Numbered from the stretch's first letter, positions 24,001 to 45,000 are shown. The stretch: DNA of 64,000 nucleotides from Myxococcota bacterium (GCA_041687695.1 JAWLBL010000005.1:36382-100381); one strand, 5' to 3'. Numbers: made by a program.

Positions 24001-27000
24001 GTGCGGGTCGGCGCCGTCGAACGTGGTGACGGTGACGGTGGCCGAGGCGCTCGAGGCGGGGGCGGTCGGAGGCGGGCAGACCATCTGCCAGGGCGCGAAC
24101 GCGGCGGCGCTGTCGTCGGCGGAGGCGGCGAGCGGCGGCCTGGGGACGGTGCTGTACCAGTGGGAGTCGCGGGCGCCGGAGGGCGCGTGGGCGGCCATCG
24201 GCGGGGCTACTGGGGCGACGTATGCGCCGGGCGCGGTGGGGGAGACCACCGAGTATCGGCGTCGGGCCAGCAACGACTGCGGCGAGGCGGTGTCGAACGC
24301 GGTGACGGTCGCGGTGGACCCGGCCTTCGACGCGGGCAGCGTGGGCGGTGACCAGGCGGTGTGTCACGGGGCGACGCCGGCCGGGCTGACGTCCTCGGCG
24401 GGGGCGACGGGCGGCAGCGGGGCGAGCACCTATCAGTGGCAGGCGCGCCAGAGCGGGCAGACCAGCTGGGCGAACGTGGCCGGGGCGACCGGGGCGACCC
24501 ATCAGCCGGGGGCGGCGACGGTGACGACCGAGTACCGGCGCGGGGCGACGAACAGCTGCGGCAGCGGGCACTCGAACGTGGTGACGGTCTCGGTGCACGG
24601 GGCGCTGTCGGCGGGGACGCCCAGCGGGTCGCAGACGATCTGCCACGGGGCGACGCCCAGCCAGCTGACGGTGTCGGCGCCCAGCGGCGGCAGCGGGGGC
24701 TTCACCTTCCAGTGGCAGTCCAGCCCGAACGGCAGCACGTGGAGCGACATCGCGGGGGCCACGGGGGCCAGCTACCAGCCCGGAGCCCTGACGGCGAACA
24801 CGCAGTATCGGCGGGTGGCGACCAACGGCTGCGGGTCGGTCGAGTCGGCCAGCATCGCCATCGCCGTGCACGGCGCGCTAAACGCGGGCAGCGTGTCGGC
24901 CAACCAGTCGATCTGCAGCGGGGCCAAGCCGGCCGCGCTGACCGGGTCGTCGCCGTCGGGCGGCAGCGGATCGTTCAGCTATCAGTGGCAGTCCAGCACC
25001 AACGGGACCAGCTGGTCGAACGTGTCGGGGGCGACGAGCAGCAGCTACGCGCCCGGCGCGCTGACGACGACGACGCAGTTCCGGCGGGTGGCCAGCAACA
25101 GCTGCGGGTCGGCGACGTCGAACGCGGTGACGGTCACGGTCGCCAGCGGGCTGACGGCGGGCGGCATCGGCAACCCGCAGTCGATCTGCTACGGCGGCAA
25201 CCCCAGCGCGCTGTCCAGCACCAGCTCGGCCTCGGGGGGCCTGGGCAACATCACCTACCAGTGGCAGCAGCGCCCGTCGGGCGGCAGCTGGTCGAACATC
25301 TCGGGCGCGACGAGCACGACCTACAACCCGGGCGTGCTGACGACGACGACCGAGTACCGGCGGCAGGCCTCGAACACCTGCGGCACCGTGACCAGCAACA
25401 CGGTCACGGTGACGGTCGCGCCGAAGCTCGACGGCGGCGCCATCGGCTACGACCAGTGGGTCTGCCCCGGCGGCACGACCTCGACGTTCACCAACGTGAC
25501 GTCGGCCAGCGGCGGGTCGGGCAGCATCGCCTACCAGTGGCAGCGCCGGCAGGGCACCAACGCCTGGGAGAACATCTCGGGCGCGACCAGCGCGACCTAC
25601 AAGCCGTCGAACCTGCCCTACGAGTACCGTCGAGCCGCGTCGAACTCCTGCGGGACGGCGTACTCGAACACGGTCAAGGTCGAGCTGTTGCCGTACGATA
25701 TCTGCAACCCGTGCAACCCCATCTGCCCCTGACGGCTTCGGCGCGGCAGGCAGGCGCCACCGCGCCGCAACACGATCGCCTGGGGTGCGGTTGACGAGGT
25801 CCGTCAGGGTCTCTTAGGGTCTGGCCTTCCAGCTTGGAGGCCGGATCCTGGACTTCGTGGACGCGACACTCGTGCGGCTCGCCCACCCTGCGGCGCGGGA
25901 GATGCTGGTGGGCGCGGCGGCGCTGGCGCGGGTGGCGGCGGCGGCGTACGACGCGAGCCGGCTGGCGATGGGGCCGCCCTACGAGGCGCGCTTCGACGAG
26001 GTGAGGATCGGCCAGGTGCTGCCCGCGAGCGCGCGTGGCGAGCTGCGCTGGGCGCGGGACGACGGACAGGACCGGCGCGTCGGCGGGTTCGAGGTGCACG
26101 GGCTGGGCGGCGAGGCGGACCTGGCGGTCGACTTCACGTGGCTGGGCGCGGTCGTGGCGCGGGTGGCGCCCGGCGGCGGACGGGTGGCCGCGGTCGACGT
26201 GGCGTGGCCGAGGGTCGCGGAGATCGACCAGCGCGTCGCGGAGCGGCTCGGTGCCTTGCCGAGCGGGGCGGAGGAGCGCGAGCGGGCGCGGCGCGAGGCG
26301 CTGCTGGGGCTGATGCGGGCCGAGGCGGGCGCGTCGGAGGCGGTGGACGAGGCCAGCCTCGGGCGGCTGCTGGCGCGGGCGGGGGTGGCGTCGGTGGGCG
26401 CGCTCGTCGCGTCGCGAGGGCAGGCGGCCGCGTTGCGGGTGCGCTGGGAGGCCGACGACACCGGGGCGGAGCCGGGGCCGGTGGCGCTGCCGATCGCGGC
26501 GGCCGGCCTGGTGCGTGATCCCGCGGCCGCCGGGTTCTCGCTGCGAGAGCTGCTGGCGACGAGCGCGAAGGTGCGCGCGCGCATGGGCGCGCTGGGGATC
26601 GAGCGCCCGGTCGACGAACGGCTGCCCAGACGACACGGTGCGCTGGTCCTGTGGGTCGTTCCGCGCGCGTGGTTCGACGACCCGCACTGGCCGGGCGGCG
26701 AGGAAGCCTCGGACGACGAGGCGCGCCGCCAGGCCCGCATCGAGGCCGCCAGCGCGTGGCTGAGCGCCGAAGGCATCGTCATCGTCGACGTCCCCTGACC
26801 CGCGAACCCTGCCCTACCCCGAGACGCCAGGAGTGAAGCCGTGACATTGCCCGCCGCCTATCCCTTCGTTCAGGTCCGCGTCGACACGAGCGGACTGCAA
26901 CCGGTCGCGCAGCGCGCGCCCGGCGTCATCGCCATCGTCGGCGACACCAGCGGCGCCGGCACGGCCGCGCCCAACACCCCCTTCCGGGTCGACACCCTCG

Positions 27001-42000: not shown

Positions 42001-45000
42001 GGGCGTCGAGGCGATGGCCGGCCGCTGGATGCACGTCTTCGCGAGCGACTTCGGGTTGCTGCTCAAGGCGGTCGAGGGCGAGGCGCCCACGGGCGAGGTC
42101 CGCTATCGGGACGCCGCGCTCGAGGACGTGGCGGCGGTGGCGAGGTGGGCCGCGAGCAACGAGCGTTTGGTCGCGCGCGCCTTCCCGGACGGCGGGGTGA
42201 CGGCCGAGGGCCTGCTCGCGCGCTTCGGCGACGCCGACGTGGGCGGCGGCCGCACCCTGGCCGAGGCCATGGCGGGCGTCCCGGCGGCGACGCGCTTCGA
42301 GGACGCCGGGGCCATCGGCGCGGAGGTCGCCGCCATCAAGGGCCAGGCGTTGCGCGCGAGCGGGCGCCGGTCGGCGGCGTTGGTCGGCGCGCTGGGGATG
42401 GAGGCGGCCGGAGCGCGTGCCGGGGCGTTGCCGCTGGGCCGCTTCGCGTGGATGCCCGACGAGGCGCGGCAGGTGCTGACGAAGGCCGGGCTGGGGACGA
42501 TCGCTGCGCTGGCGTCGGCGCCGACCAAGCAGCTGCTGGCGACGCTGAAGGCGGCCGGGGTCACGGCGGCCGCGGACGAGGTCGAGGCCTGGAAGGCGGT
42601 CGCGGGCGCGATCGGACAGGGCCAGTGACGTGGCGCCGCGGGCGGTAGCCTGTGAGGGGGACGTCGCCGCGGTGGTCGGGGCGACGCCGCTGACGCCGGC
42701 CAAGTCGGGGACGTGGACGGCCGACCCGGTGCGCCACGGCCGCTACGAGCACGTGCGGGTCGGCGGGACGCCCGTCGTGGTCGAGGCGCGCTGCGTCTTC
42801 CGCTTCTCGGGGGCGGACGCGGACGGCAAGGCGGTCGTCGGCGATGAAGAGGTCGTGCTGACGGCCGGGGCGACCGTGTGGATGGGTAGTGCCGAGGGCG
42901 TGCTGGCGCACGGGGACGCCGCGGCGAGCCCGCACGGCAACCGGCTGGAGGTGGTGAGCGCGCGGCCGGCGCGGACGGGCTGAGCGGGAAGCCGGCGGGT
43001 CACAAGCCGAGGGTGAGGCCGGCCCAGGAGGCGTCGGGGTCGGGGGCGCCGTGGGCGAAGGTGGCGAAGGGGCTGAGGAACAGGCCCAGGCGCGCGGACA
43101 GGAGGAGGTCGAGGCGCAGGGTGGCGTCGGCCTGCAGGTGGGGGCCGGGCGGACGCCAGGTGGGCAGCAGGGTGGCGTCCAGGCGCAGGCGGTGGGCGCC
43201 GGTGAGCGGCAGGACCAGCTCGAGGCGGGGGCCGAGCGCGGCGTGGAGCCAGTCGTCCGGGCCGAGGTAGGAGGCGAGGCGCAGCTCGAGGCCGGCGGCG
43301 AGGAGGCCGCGGAAGTCGTCGCGCTCGGCCAGGGTCAGGTGGGCGCGGGCGCGGAGGTCGAGGCCGAAGAGGAGGCCGGCGGCCGGGAGGGTGGCGCCGC
43401 CGAGGGAGAAGCCGAGGCCGAGGTGGCGGGCGAGCCAGGCGTCGGTGGGGCGGCCCTGCAGGCCGAAGCGGTCGTGGGCGAGGAAGACGAAGCGGGAGCC
43501 CTCGAAGACGGGGCGGTCGCCGTCCCAGCGGACGCGGGTCTCGCTGACCAGGCCCTGGTGGCGGGCGTGGGCGCCGAGGCCGGCGGCGCGGCGCTCGGTG
43601 GTGTCCTCGTCGAGGACGGCGTGGCGCAGGGCCAGGCGCGGGTGGCCGGCCGGGGTGACGCCGGCGCGGACGGCGGCGCGGCGGGAGCCGCTGGGGAGCA
43701 GCTCGGGCTCGGGGAGCGGGGCGACGCGGGCGGTGGGGCGGATGGGGAGGGTCGCGCGGAGGTCGAGGGCGGCGTCCATGGCGACGGTGGAGGTGGCCTC
43801 GTCGAGGTCGGGGCCGGCGCGGAGGGCCTCGTTCTCTGCGTCGATGACGGCGTCGGCGTACTCGGCGAGGGCGGCGCGGGTCGGCGGGGGCAGGGAGGCC
43901 GAGGCGAGGGCGTCGCGGAGGGCGCCGAGGGCGGCGGCGCGGGCGGGCTCGGGGGCGGCGCGGCTGCCGTGGGCGGCGGCGAAGCCGGGGACGGCGGCGA
44001 GGCGGGGGGCGAGGCGGTCGCGGGTGCGTTCGGCCTGCCGGGACAGGGTGCGGCGCGAGGGGACCATGCCGCGCAGGCGCAGGCGGACGTGCTCGAGGAG
44101 ATCGCTGACCACCTCGTGCGGGTGGACGAGGAAGCGGGCCTGGCGGGGCAGCTCGGGGGCGACGGCGCGGACGGCGTCCCAGGTGAGGCGGGCGCAGTTG
44201 ACCGACAGGAAGCGGTAGGGGACCGACATGCCGCCGTGGCGCTGGGCGAAGAGCTGGGCCAGGAAGTCGCGGCGCTCGGCGGGGGTGAGGACGAGGTCGT
44301 AGACGATGAGGTCGCGCTGCTCGCCGATGGCGTAGCGCAGGACCATCTCGTGGTGCTGGCTCTCGATGACGGTGGCGTCGACCTGGCCGGTCAGGCCGCG
44401 CCAGACGGCGTCCTCGGCGGCGCCGGGGCGGTCGAGGTCGACGGCGTAGGAGTAGACGGGCTCGAAGGACTGGCCGGTGACGAAGGCGTCGCCCTTGTGG
44501 CGGATGCGCAGGAAGAGGTGGCCGAAGGAGGAGGCCGGGTGGGCCCAGGAGGGGGTGGCGAAGAGGAGCTCGACGCCGTCGACGCGGTCGAGCTGGGCCC
44601 AGGCGTCGAAGGCCGGGCAGCCGCCGGTGTCGAGGGCGAGGGGGCCGGGGACGAGGTCGCGGGCGGCGAGGAAGCGGGCGCGGAGCGGGAAGCGGCAGGA
44701 GAAGTCGGGTTCGGTGAAGGCGCGGGCGAGGGAGGCGCGGAGGTCGGCGGCGGGGTCGGCGCGGCCGGCGCGGGTGGGGTAGCGGCCGGGGGCGGCGTCG
44801 AGGGCGGGGGCGGCCGGGAGGGGGGAGTCGGTGGGGGGTTCCCAGCCCATGATGGCGAGCCAGGCGGGGTCGCGGCTGAGGTGGTGGCGGGCGTCGAGGC
44901 GGGCGGCGAGGGCGAGGAGGAGGGCGAGCTCGCGGGTGCGCGGGGGGCCGTCGGGGAGGGGCGGGAGGGGGTGGGCGACGGCGCGGAGGGGGGCGGGGAG

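Follow-up and report, generated by a model that had tools for sequence, protein, structure and literature searches.

The analysis indicates, at a probability of roughly 0.6, that the operon g00-g14 encodes an unclassified lineage of head-less contractile injection particles that would deliver polymorphic nuclease effectors coupled to their tape measure. Gene content, synteny, the absence of head genes, domain architecture and co-occurrences were computed directly, and from them we infer how the particle would be assembled, loaded and released, and how it would act on a target. In particular, the operon would encode a domesticated phage-tail-like particle, unrecognised by standard eCIS, tailocin and T6SS models, with a sheath (g01), a tube (g02), a tape-measure-like protein within the tube (g04), a baseplate and spike formed by g09, g10, g11 and g12, and a fibre (g13). 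The slot behind g04 would hold an effector, whose constant N-domain (a helical hairpin in the structure model) may dock on the C-terminal part of g04 or inside the tube lumen, and whose interchangeable C-terminal domain, when identifiable, is in most cases a nuclease; the effector of the present genome, g05, is a predicted HNH 'SHH' DNase. Sheath contraction would push spike and tube through the envelope of the target cell, g04 and g05 would be expelled, and g05 would cut the target's DNA; g06, translationally coupled to g05, would neutralise it and so protect the producer and its kin. A built-in slot for exchangeable nuclease toxins suggests that a family of bacterial toxin-delivery machines has gone unrecognised, and the lineage appears undescribed in literature searches.

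The operon runs along the + strand from position 25872, the start codon of g00, to 42983, the stop codon of g14, within the window (the whole 64-kb stretch of DNA analysed; Table 1), and GC3 frame analysis together with start-codon choice bears out the 15 co-directional genes of the survey's finding. All 15 reading frames are intact and coupled, with seven overlaps of 4 or 8 nt and one of 1 nt at the g00-g14 junctions and gaps of 1-42 nt elsewhere. The products include a tail sheath, a probable tube, a tape-measure-like protein, a hub-spike fusion, gp25-like and Baseplate-J-like wedges and a fibre-like protein; the module shows no recognisable tail terminator or cap, lysis cassette or AAA+ ATPase, which counts against the preferred reading. 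The earlier Pfam and PHROGs matches for g05, g06, g11, the sheath and the gp25-like wedge were obtained again with the same values. The description of the module as Pfam-invisible is slightly overstated, since Baseplate_J in g11 (1e-6, 28.7 bits) also exceeds its curated cut-off of 21.1, so that two of the 15 genes pass Pfam and not one. NCBIfam returned nothing meaningful for the operon proteins, its sole row (g05, 0.0095) being at chance level.

Table 1. Genes and domains of the module, with positions counted along the window.
Feature	Position	Strand	Length or residues	Basis or remark
g00	25872..26798	+	308 aa	First gene of module, conserved
g01, tail sheath	26841..28010	+	389 aa	PHROGs; family members' PHROGs matches
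g02, probable tail tube	28035..28454	+	139 aa	Position behind sheath, size, conservation
g03, small protein in tail-assembly-chaperone position	28462..28755	+	97 aa	Role from position alone
g04, tape-measure-like	28777..31914	+	1045 aa	Position, hydrophobic segment, GGE repeats
g05, putative effector	31914..32999	+	361 aa	N-terminal adaptor domain, C-terminal Tox-SHH HNH nuclease
g05 N-terminal adaptor domain	31914-32318	+	residues 1-135	
g05 Tox-SHH domain	32643-32933	+	residues 244-340	
g06, probable immunity protein	32996..33898	+	300 aa	Co-occurs with SHH toxins
g07, conserved baseplate-region protein	33891..34433	+	180 aa	
g08, conserved protein	34430..35041	+	203 aa	
g09, baseplate hub fused to spike, VgrG-like	35038..37017	+	659 aa	PDB profile matches
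g10, gp25-like sheath initiator / wedge	37014..37466	+	150 aa	PHROGs
g11, Baseplate-J-like wedge	37459..38916	+	485 aa	PHROGs, Pfam
g12, large baseplate protein	38913..41237	+	774 aa	Possibly gpI-like in part
g13, fibre / receptor-binding-like	41249..42628	+	459 aa	N-terminus aligns between loci
g14, small ORF	42630..42983	+	117 aa	Probably outside core

In PHROGs, g01 matches phrog_23 (1.1e-6) and phrog_205 (2.3e-6), and among 25 members of its family, 18 match phrog_279 'tail sheath' (best 4.4e-15) and 17 match phrog_23. As reported before, the sheath has 651 relatives at E<=1e-5, the best 119 at 57-73% identity, and 117 of the 120 listed lack a Pfam domain; among those listed, two carry PF10758 and one bears the name 'phage tail sheath gpL-like' in its source. 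When 25 sheaths were combined in a profile, it again matched no PDB sequence (best E 1.2, an unrelated protein), and the mean column identity of the sheath is 72%. For g02, mean column identity is 53% across 35 sequences, and its probable role as tail tube has the basis given in Table 1, with sequence matches of E 0.1-0.2 only (Pfam T6SS_HCP, 0.095; PDB Hcp1, 0.17). The g03 gene is kept between tube and g04 in many loci, at 37-73% identity. Homologues of g00 (25-48% identical) adjoin the sheath gene upstream in most loci. The AF2 model of g00 (pLDDT 89.5) yielded zero Foldseek matches in PDB and BFVD, and weak VIA-align matches (Z<=7.0), which fall almost exclusively on PD-(D/E)xK nuclease folds; neither a cap nor a terminator fold was seen in these comparisons.

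Downstream, g07 is 34-56% identical across loci, and its profile has zero PDB matches; comparison with the tube profile by hhalign was negative. Three loci (L013, L029 and L077) have no g03, g04 or slot gene between tube and g07, a point against the preferred reading, and there g07 lies directly 3' of the tube gene. The g08 gene is syntenic in most main-clade loci, with nothing meaningful matched in the PDB. The g09 profile (32 sequences) matches three PDB chains, namely 9gtr_q ('Gp5/VgrG OB-fold', 5.4e-8) and 7aef_q (1.4e-4) at its C-terminus and the phage Mu gp44 hub 1wru (0.009) at positions 117-220. In PHROGs, g10 matches phrog_120 (4.7e-8), phrog_43 (1.9e-5) and phrog_975 (3e-5), and g11, whose relatives are 43-64% identical, matches phrog_6 (2.7e-36). 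The g12 protein is 39-51% identical in loci extending that far and lower in L077 (about 31-38%, in two pieces); its profile weakly matches the phage protein Phi92_gp146 in the PDB (0.0064), and residues ~150-240 are possibly gpI-like. Seven loci match g13, mostly over the N-terminal ~140 residues (32-50% identity), and in L086 and L087 a weak alignment continues beyond them. No homologue of g14 was found in the extended loci (E<=1e-3), nor a Pfam family match, and it probably lies outside the core of the module.

The proposed synteny across phyla was confirmed: the module was located in the genomes of 80 species belonging to nine phyla, with sheath identities of 36-66%, and almost all sufficiently long loci share the order g00-sheath-g02-...-g07-g08-g09-g10-g11. 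According to the record titles, from which the phylum of each locus was read, there are 36 loci in Actinomycetota, 18 in Pseudomonadota, 6 in Myxococcota, 4 each in Acidobacteriota and Chloroflexota, 3 each in Cyanobacteriota, Armatimonadota and Eremiobacterota, 1 in Planctomycetota and 2 of unknown phylum. Moreover, the suggested horizontal spread is supported by the patchy occurrence of g09, which a single genome among 40 relatives of the Myxococcota source genome carries, and by the nearest sheath neighbour, which belongs to another phylum for 29 of 73 sheaths. The sheath of the window has 63-65% identity with its counterparts in Armatimonadota, Cyanobacteriota and Actinomycetota, versus 43-61% with those of other Myxococcota.

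The designation head-less also stands. Capsid, portal and terminase genes were found neither in the window nor among the 87 ORFs within 9 kb upstream of 14 loci, nor in the 10-12 kb downstream of five loci, and the source genome has no match to Phage_capsid or Phage_portal. The sheath has 0 matches among 50,697 phage records (tblastn) and 0 in IMG/VR. The recurring neighbours are cellular regulators, namely LuxR response regulators (9 loci), sigma-54 activators (6) and SARP/BTAD regulators (5); housekeeping genes lie 3' of g13 in all five extended loci, and the sole mobile-element gene seen in the flanks is a transposase in L014, with no integrase at the module borders. Such developmental-type regulators, the many hosts with developmental lysis (actinomycetes, myxobacteria, filamentous cyanobacteria) and the lack of a holin, endolysin or other release gene in or beside the module would suit a cell-bound or cytoplasmic system like the Streptomyces CIS, which would fire within or from the producer, serving regulated cell death or contact-dependent attack with no released particle; Streptomyces SLP, which is intracellular, is a precedent (PMC13277306). 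We consider this unlikely, as Pfam revealed no membrane-anchor or T6SS-type genes in the module, the mostly variable C-terminal part of the fibre-like g13 suggests recognition of an outside surface, and a dedicated immunity gene suits kin attack more than suicide.

The module had been described as armed in this genome, and the present data extend that claim, in that the toxin slot belongs to the lineage rather than to this genome alone. The g04 protein, which occupies the tape measure's position, is conserved at residues ~1-140 and ~370-1020 with a variable middle, and carries a hydrophobic segment (residues 851-884) and a run of GGE repeats; we call it tape-measure-like, and it matches no Pfam, PHROGs or NCBIfam family, tape-measure families included. 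Across loci, the gene behind it encodes a constant N-terminal domain (about 125 residues) followed by variable C-termini. Jackhmmer detected the g05 N-domain in 43 of 160 ORFs called between tube and g07, and its profile found 259 cluster representatives at E<=1e-3, and with few exceptions the domain is N-terminal in the 150 listed. Of the 149 listed besides g05, a toxin or nuclease domain could be named in 23, which span seven families (Ntox4 8, Tox-SHH 6, Endonuclea_NS_2 5, and WHH/Colicin-DNase, AHH, GIY-YIG and Tox-REase-9 1 each); the other 126 have no recognisable C-terminal domain, which counts against an effector role. Overall, 46 of 72 loci have the N-domain, and its distribution follows that of the g04-type C-terminal region, with 45 of 50 loci that have this region and 1 of 22 that lack it; a g04 query found no relative in the L029 genome.

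These patterns also bear on a tailocin that would kill by puncture alone, depolarising its target as R-type pyocins do, with g05-g06 as a toxin-immunity cassette resident in the operon, serving either for addiction or for a toxin that is secreted on its own and not injected. Sheath, tube, small protein, long protein, baseplate and fibre genes succeed one another as in the myophage-derived tailocins pyocin R2 and diffocin, mobile regions do receive toxin-immunity cassettes, and no established eCIS loading signal, DUF4157 included, was found among the operon and N-domain proteins. Nevertheless, this explanation is slightly harder to sustain than a cell-bound system and likewise improbable, because the N-domain follows the g04-type tape measure, the slot is invariant in position and its gene translationally coupled, neither a signal peptide nor another secretion domain was seen on g05, and a constant N-domain joined to a variable toxin is a trafficking-domain architecture (PMC3482391).

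In Pfam, g05 exceeds the Tox-SHH cut-off (1.3e-6, 29.5 bits versus 22.7), and five relatives all retain H285 and the catalytic HH dyad H249/H250. Its structure model has low confidence across the HNH loops, and shows the N-domain as a long helical hairpin that matches nothing beyond generic helical hairpins. Zhang et al. 2012 include Imm-SUKH among the immunities for Tox-SHH and list Ntox4 as a PVC-delivered toxin lacking immunity (PMC3482391). A 4-nt overlap joins the start of g06 to the stop codon of g05, and a g06-like gene follows all five SHH-type toxins and no other slot protein. The survey's finding had g06 as a SUKH-like immunity protein; the SUKH label is still weak (SMI1_KNR4 0.045, 14.8 bits, far below the cut-off of 25.4; matched by two of five family members, best 5.9e-5), but the immunity role is better supported because of the strict co-occurrence with the SHH toxin, and g06 is a probable immunity protein. 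No extra gene separates effector from g07 in the Ntox4-type loci or in the Endonuclea_NS_2 locus L040; therefore, an immunity gene next to the effector is not the general rule.

Alternatively, the slot protein may be a structural tail part from an ancestral phage, such as a tape-measure partner or tail-tip protein, whose variable C-terminal enzymes would be no toxins but would aid penetration or DNA handling. Tail proteins are encoded in this position, after the tape measure, by gene N in Mu and genes U and X in P2, and both the 126 relatives lacking a toxin domain and the missing immunity gene in most loci agree with such a role; it is nonetheless quite doubtful, as the seven C-terminal families that could be recognised all belong to the nucleases or toxins of polymorphic toxin systems, zero are cell-wall hydrolases, and the SHH type always has a dedicated downstream partner. 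Least probable is a decaying prophage, the functionless tail half of a defective myophage, for although every recognisable part is of phage-tail type and GC3 is slightly lower in the module (0.89-0.97) than in flanking genes (0.94-0.99), none of the 15 coupled frames is broken, the head-less module recurs in 80 species, head genes occur in 0 of 14 loci upstream and 0 of 5 downstream with no border integrase seen, and the conserved sheath is unmatched in both phage collections.

The preferred reading, an injection particle with an effector slot, can be set against known systems. Like the R-type tailocins pyocin R2 and diffocin, it is a chromosomal head-less contractile tail cluster, and its gene order is similar to theirs, including the tape-measure-like protein, the hub, gp25-like and J-like baseplate genes and a C-terminally variable fibre; in contrast to them, it has no lysis cassette that we found, no detectable phage relative of its sheath, and a toxin slot with interchangeable nucleases. 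R-type tailocins are not known to use a cargo for killing. The phage Mu-type tail is similar in its gp44 hub, in the gpL-like name of one sheath relative and in the PF10758 domain of two, whereas Mu-like head, portal and transposase genes are absent here and the sheath lacks tblastn matches in phage records.

Afp/PVC-type eCIS with DUF4157 ('PVC-metallopeptidase') toxins are likewise head-less and contractile, and their toxins combine constant N-terminal and variable C-terminal domains, often without an adjacent immunity gene and with Ntox4 among the PVC ones (PMC3482391). However, their AAA+ ATPase, DUF4255 cap and DUF4157 were not found here, the tape-measure-like gene lies behind the tube gene rather than near the 3' end, and the constant domain is modelled as an unrelated helical hairpin. 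A metagenome CIS catalogue used eight Afp-like systems as seeds and left out phage and R-type-like clusters (PMC12210884). The MAC arrays of Pseudoalteromonas are Afp-like and target eukaryotic cells, whereas the nucleases here are of bacterial polymorphic-toxin type, one with a putative immunity partner. In MACs, too, a contractile phage-tail-like structure is reported to inject a nuclease, the effector Pne1 (bioRxiv 10.1101/543298). Further, according to Nagakubo et al. 2026 (PMC13277306), the Streptomyces lividans SLP particle packages the tape-measure-related effectors Sle1/Sle2 with swappable C-terminal functional domains, and one relative forms a toxin-antitoxin pair. SLP differs in being an Afp-like CIS whose adaptor Sle2 has a known CIS effector core domain; here both lineage and adaptor domain are different, and the variable domains form part of a separate protein in type-A loci and of the long protein in type-B loci. 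Sle1/Sle2 is the closest mechanistic precedent for g04 and g05.

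The contractile tail-like operon is a real feature, and the survey's finding, which had described a head-less, horizontally spread and toxin-armed module, is supported and extended. At odds slightly short of even (a probability of roughly 0.45), the operon represents a major uncatalogued lineage of contractile injection systems with a myophage-like gene order, which would be dedicated to delivering polymorphic nuclease toxins by way of a new helical-hairpin adaptor that couples the cargo to the tape measure, and the latter would form the projectile with its partner. Sheath clusters of that lineage number over 650 and come from no fewer than nine phyla.

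GC3 frame analysis and start-codon inspection place 15 co-directional genes, g00 to g14, in the module. They are a single translationally coupled operon, with seven junctions that overlap by 4 or 8 nt, a 1 nt overlap between g04 and g05, and gaps of 1-42 nt elsewhere. The flanks are ordinary cellular genes. The window's G+C content is 72%, and GC3 is 0.89-0.97 in the module vs 0.94-0.99 in the flanks, a slight gap that does not suggest recent arrival. A scan with the sigma-54 promoter consensus gave 35 matches vs about 52 expected by chance, none of them upstream of g00, and a scan for sigma-70 promoters and terminators gave nothing above expectation. A search of sequencing runs listed no RNA run for the locus and one DNA metagenome run that contains a small share of its words. 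Upstream of the module lie a probable defence island and an ORF of foreign composition that may be a recent insertion.

Features of the window in and around the contractile tail-like operon
Feature	Window position	Strand	Description
Operon g00-g14	25872-42983	+	15 genes
g00	25872-26798	+	conserved, directly upstream of sheath gene; confident model, pLDDT 89.5
GGE repeats in g04	29920-30030	+	about 11 repeats at g04 residues ~383-416, in the variable central stretch of this tape-measure-like protein
Probable defence island	11332-17439	-	1080-aa PLDc_2 + ResIII/helicase + DUF3427 protein
AbiEi antitoxin-type regulator	15320-15937		in the island; adjoining 429-aa ORF without Pfam match
1035-aa ORF	18716-21823	+	GC 0.64, GC3 0.71 vs ~0.95-0.99 around; sole match a weak NCBIfam one, SBBP beta-propeller lipoprotein
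Ig_7 surface protein			1225 aa; upstream of module
Lnb_N membrane protein		opposite	downstream of module
Glycosyltransferase, PurT, Ser/Thr kinase, glycogen enzymes			farther downstream, past the Lnb_N gene

Rerunning the searches reproduced the reported Pfam, PHROGs and NCBIfam matches. The claim that the module is invisible to Pfam is slightly overstated: the Baseplate_J match of g11 scores 28.7 bits vs a curated cut-off of 21.1, which raises the number of genes above Pfam's curated thresholds from one to two. For the sheath, g01, the earlier counts were recovered: a total of 651 relatives with E<=1e-5, identities of 57-73% for the best 119, 117 of the 120 listed without a Pfam domain, and no match of the sheath profile to PDB sequences. 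The protein matches phrog_23 and phrog_205 at about 1e-6, and the sequence evidence for a sheath is judged adequate because 18 of 25 family members match phrog_279 'tail sheath' (best 4.4e-15). The tube is probably g02, as called from position and size; its Hcp-like matches are weak (E 0.095 and 0.17 only). A profile of 32 g09 sequences matches, at its C-terminus, the VgrG/gp5-type spikes of two contractile injection systems with known structures (9gtr_q, 5.4e-8; 7aef_q, 1.4e-4) and, farther upstream, the gp44 hub of phage Mu (1wru, 0.009); given the spike matches and the hub match ahead of them, g09 is a hub-spike fusion. The baseplate further has a gp25-like wedge, g10 (phrog_120, 4.7e-8), and a J-like wedge, g11 (phrog_6, 2.7e-36). 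In most loci that reach it, g12 is 39-51% conserved, and it weakly matches the phage protein Phi92_gp146. In most loci with a match to g13, the first ~140 residues alone align, as would be expected for a fibre whose receptor-binding end changes.

At the tape-measure position stands g04, a protein of 1045 aa with a hydrophobic segment at 851-884, for which family searches gave no match. Both g07 and g08 are conserved; profile searches against the PDB returned nothing for g07 and chance-level rows only for g08, and an hhalign comparison of g07 with the tube profile was negative. For g00, the PDB profile search was empty and Foldseek on the model gave no match at E<=0.001. VIA-align gave weak matches only (Z<=7.0), nearly all of them PD-(D/E)xK nuclease folds, including NucS, XisH-like, Shedu SduA and Can2, and a protein atlas search gave a weak pointer to PD-(D/E)xK-type families, with unnamed clusters only. 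This weak nuclease-fold resemblance is unexpected beside a tail sheath gene. Two assignments were rejected: g00 as a tail cap, which found no support, and g14 as a core part, since it is not conserved. None of the module's proteins could be recognised as a tail terminator or cap, a lysis protein or an ATPase.

A pattern scan in which each species was represented by one genome yielded 80 loci; their sheath identities are 36-66%, and they span nine phyla as assigned from record titles. By tblastn with the 15 proteins, nearly every sufficiently long locus keeps the order g00, sheath, g02, (g03, g04), g07, g08, g09, g10, g11; all five loci extended downstream keep g12 and the g13 N-terminus, followed by housekeeping genes. 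Nearest-neighbour identities place the closest sheath in another phylum for 29 of 73 sheaths, and in a neighbour-joining tree of sheaths, built without branch support, the phyla are mixed except for one deep actinobacterial clade. Further, just one of 40 relatives of the window's genome carries g09, namely the MAG in which locus L018 lies. Three loci (L013, L077 and L029) have a permuted gene order, with g07 directly after the tube; L013 has a frame like the g04 N-terminus just past the baseplate end of the locus, L077 has its baseplate genes ahead of the sheath, and a search of the L029 genome with g04 found no relative.

The interval between tube and g07 takes three forms among the loci. In type A, there are two proteins, a g04-like one of ~890-1180 aa and after it a separate one of 330-730 aa; in type B, there is a single long mosaic protein of 1286-1615 aa, with a small ORF (106-246 aa) after it in some loci; L013, L029 and L077 have neither form in this position. 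The separate type-A protein always starts with the ~125-residue domain that starts g05, the Tox-SHH effector. This N-domain was detected by jackhmmer in 43 of 160 ORFs called between tube and g07, as well as inside four fused proteins, and by a frame-independent scan in 46 of 72 loci. It is found in 45 of the 50 loci with the g04-type C-terminal region vs 1 of the 22 without that region.

When searched against 1.84 billion cluster representatives, the N-domain profile recovered 259 proteins at E<=1e-3 (151 at E<=1e-10); with few exceptions, the 150 listed carry the domain N-terminally. Pfam, applied to the 149 listed proteins other than g05, named a C-terminal toxin or nuclease domain in 23: Ntox4 (8), Tox-SHH (6), Endonuclea_NS_2 (5), and one each of WHH/Colicin-DNase, AHH with HhH motifs, GIY-YIG and Tox-REase-9, the last just below its cut-off. 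The other 126 had no recognisable C-terminal domain. Within the loci, the slot that follows g04 holds Ntox4 in L014, L025, L042, L078 and L083, Endonuclea_NS_2 in L040 and Tox-SHH in L050. The proposed arming of the module is thereby supported and extended, as the slot recurs across loci with named toxin families, and its proteins show the defining feature of polymorphic toxin systems (Zhang et al. 2012). Ntox4 or AHH is joined to helix-hairpin-helix DNA-binding motifs in three proteins (L083:14911-16377, P0167 and P0272), and the motifs joined to Ntox4 hint that this domain may act on nucleic acid.

The g05 model opens with a beta hairpin, continues through a long antiparallel hairpin of helices (39-88 and 101-125) to a small beta domain, and then reaches the toxin domain, where confidence is low over the HNH loops. 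Foldseek found no match to this model at E<=0.001, VIA-align gave generic helical hairpins only (Z<=9.5), and the protein atlas was uninformative for the N-domain (best score 0.79). In many type-B proteins, the first ~140 residues are g04-like (12 loci by phmmer), and the mosaic protein has the look of polymorphic cargo in a second version, one that is fused. Type-B loci include L009, L016, L020, L012, L026, L038, L006/L007, L010/L011/L030/L035, L036 and L059. Their C-terminal modules, 300-450 aa long, are common to several proteins in differing combinations, and none is named by Pfam.

The toxin domain of g05 matches Tox-SHH (PF15652, HNH/EndoVII) at 29.5 bits vs a cut-off of 22.7, over profile positions 2-96 of 96. 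H249 and H250, the HH dyad, and H285 are invariant in five sequences, where the residue preceding HH is A or C, not S or G. The start of g06, the probable immunity gene, and the stop of g05 share 4 nt. Each of the five SHH-type loci (the window, L018, L050, L053 and L054) has a g06-like gene after its effector, and no other slot protein is followed by one. After the type-B protein of L012 there is a 134-aa ORF resembling the g06 C-terminus. The resemblance of g06 to the SUKH family (SMI1_KNR4) is weak (E 0.045, 14.8 bits vs a cut-off of 25.4), with two of five family members matching (best 5.9e-5), and a PDB profile search gave no match. A word-indexed search for relatives returned g06 alone, and a five-sequence profile added five further unannotated proteins. 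An adjoining immunity gene is absent in Ntox4-type loci and in L040. Passages of Zhang et al. 2012 (PMC3482391) list Imm-SUKH among the Tox-SHH immunities and Ntox4 as a PVC-delivered toxin without immunity, and describe many PVC toxins as lacking adjacent immunity genes; the missing extra gene in Ntox4-type loci matches that listing.

The head-less reading of the module also stands: no head, portal or terminase genes adjoin it in the window flanks, the upstream locus sets or the five downstream extensions, and the two phage collections searched gave no match to its sheath. All-against-all clustering of 2,335 upstream ORFs revealed no recurring head module; what does recur there are genes for sigma-54 activators, LuxR response regulators, SARP/BTAD regulators and histidine kinases. 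When 87 ORFs lying upstream in 14 loci were scanned against PHROGs, neither a capsid nor a portal nor a terminase turned up, the single 'head and packaging' row being an M13 pIV-type secretin in L017; one transposase was present, in L014. The module's own genome (99% complete) has no match to Phage_capsid or Phage_portal, the two families searched. By tblastn, the sheath matched none of 50,697 phage records, and the patterns that found the 80 genome loci found none in IMG/VR; g11 gave four weak phage matches (22-35% identity). In six loci of different phyla (L005, L008, L016, L023, L026 and L070), a gene for a sigma-54 enhancer-binding protein lies directly upstream, ~1.5 kb from g00, which suggests that sigma-54 controls the module in those hosts. 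No gene of this kind stands in the window.

From computed results, namely the parts list, synteny, domain architecture and two co-occurrences, we infer the steps of particle assembly, loading, ejection, enzymatic activity and neutralisation. The module's proteins would assemble into a head-less contractile particle, in which g04 would occupy the tube as a tape measure would and the effector would travel with g04 by its N-terminal hairpin domain. Contraction would push the spike across the target envelope and expel g04 together with the effector, whose nuclease would destroy the target's DNA, while g06 would shield the producing cell and its kin.

Research on contractile injection systems treats them both as weapons of bacteria and as programmable tools for protein delivery. 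The kinds known to carry toxins (Afp/PVC-like eCIS and T6SS) are detected by a small set of family models that this module escapes. Two recent detection efforts (PMC12210884 and the PhageTAILor preprint) are, by their own statement in the passages at hand, bound to known reference families. No published description of the module was found in the literature searched, and an earlier listing under another name is possible. Its hosts belong to many phyla and live in soil, in water and in association with plants. If the proposed reading is true, the module would be a new class of particle, a naturally modular injector with 'plug-in' protein cargo that stands apart from PVC/Afp, T6SS and R-tailocins, and would follow a simple testable rule: cargo is coupled to the tape measure. 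The effector-loading domain would be a new search handle, with 259 cluster representatives so far, and the mostly unnamed C-termini of its proteins may hide new toxin families. The boundary between cargo-free tailocins and toxin-injecting eCIS would be blurred.

In the broad sense of contractile injection systems, the module has the sheath, the baseplate with gp25-like and J-like wedges, and the hub/spike; it lacks tested defining features of each of Afp/PVC-type eCIS, R-type tailocins and T6SS. The closest mechanistic precedent is the Sle1/Sle2 pair of the Streptomyces SLP particle, in which an effector related to tape measures, and with a C-terminal domain that can be swapped, is packaged (PMC13277306). 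The module shares with R-type tailocins a head-less chromosomal tail cluster. It carries cargo, which they are not known to do, has no lysis-type Pfam or PHROG match in place of their holin/endolysin cassette (no hydrophobic small protein occurs in the module or just downstream in five relatives), and has no traceable phage parent, whereas tailocins trace to a phage tail family. Afp/PVC-type eCIS have an AAA+ ATPase (Afp15-like) in the cluster, which we take to be a defining feature, whereas no ATPase domain appears in the 15 proteins (Pfam E<=0.1, NCBIfam). Their DUF4255 (Afp16) cap has no Pfam match in the module and no match to g00, the one unassigned protein modelled, though a missing fold match proves little; their DUF4157 / PVC-metallopeptidase effector core is absent from g05, 32 locus proteins and the 149 listed N-domain relatives; and the gene order differs. 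The two-part TssB/TssC sheath, ClpV and membrane complex of T6SS were not found in the module or the window flanks by Pfam or NCBIfam. In its presumed way of working the module comes closest to an eCIS, and in its build to a tailocin.
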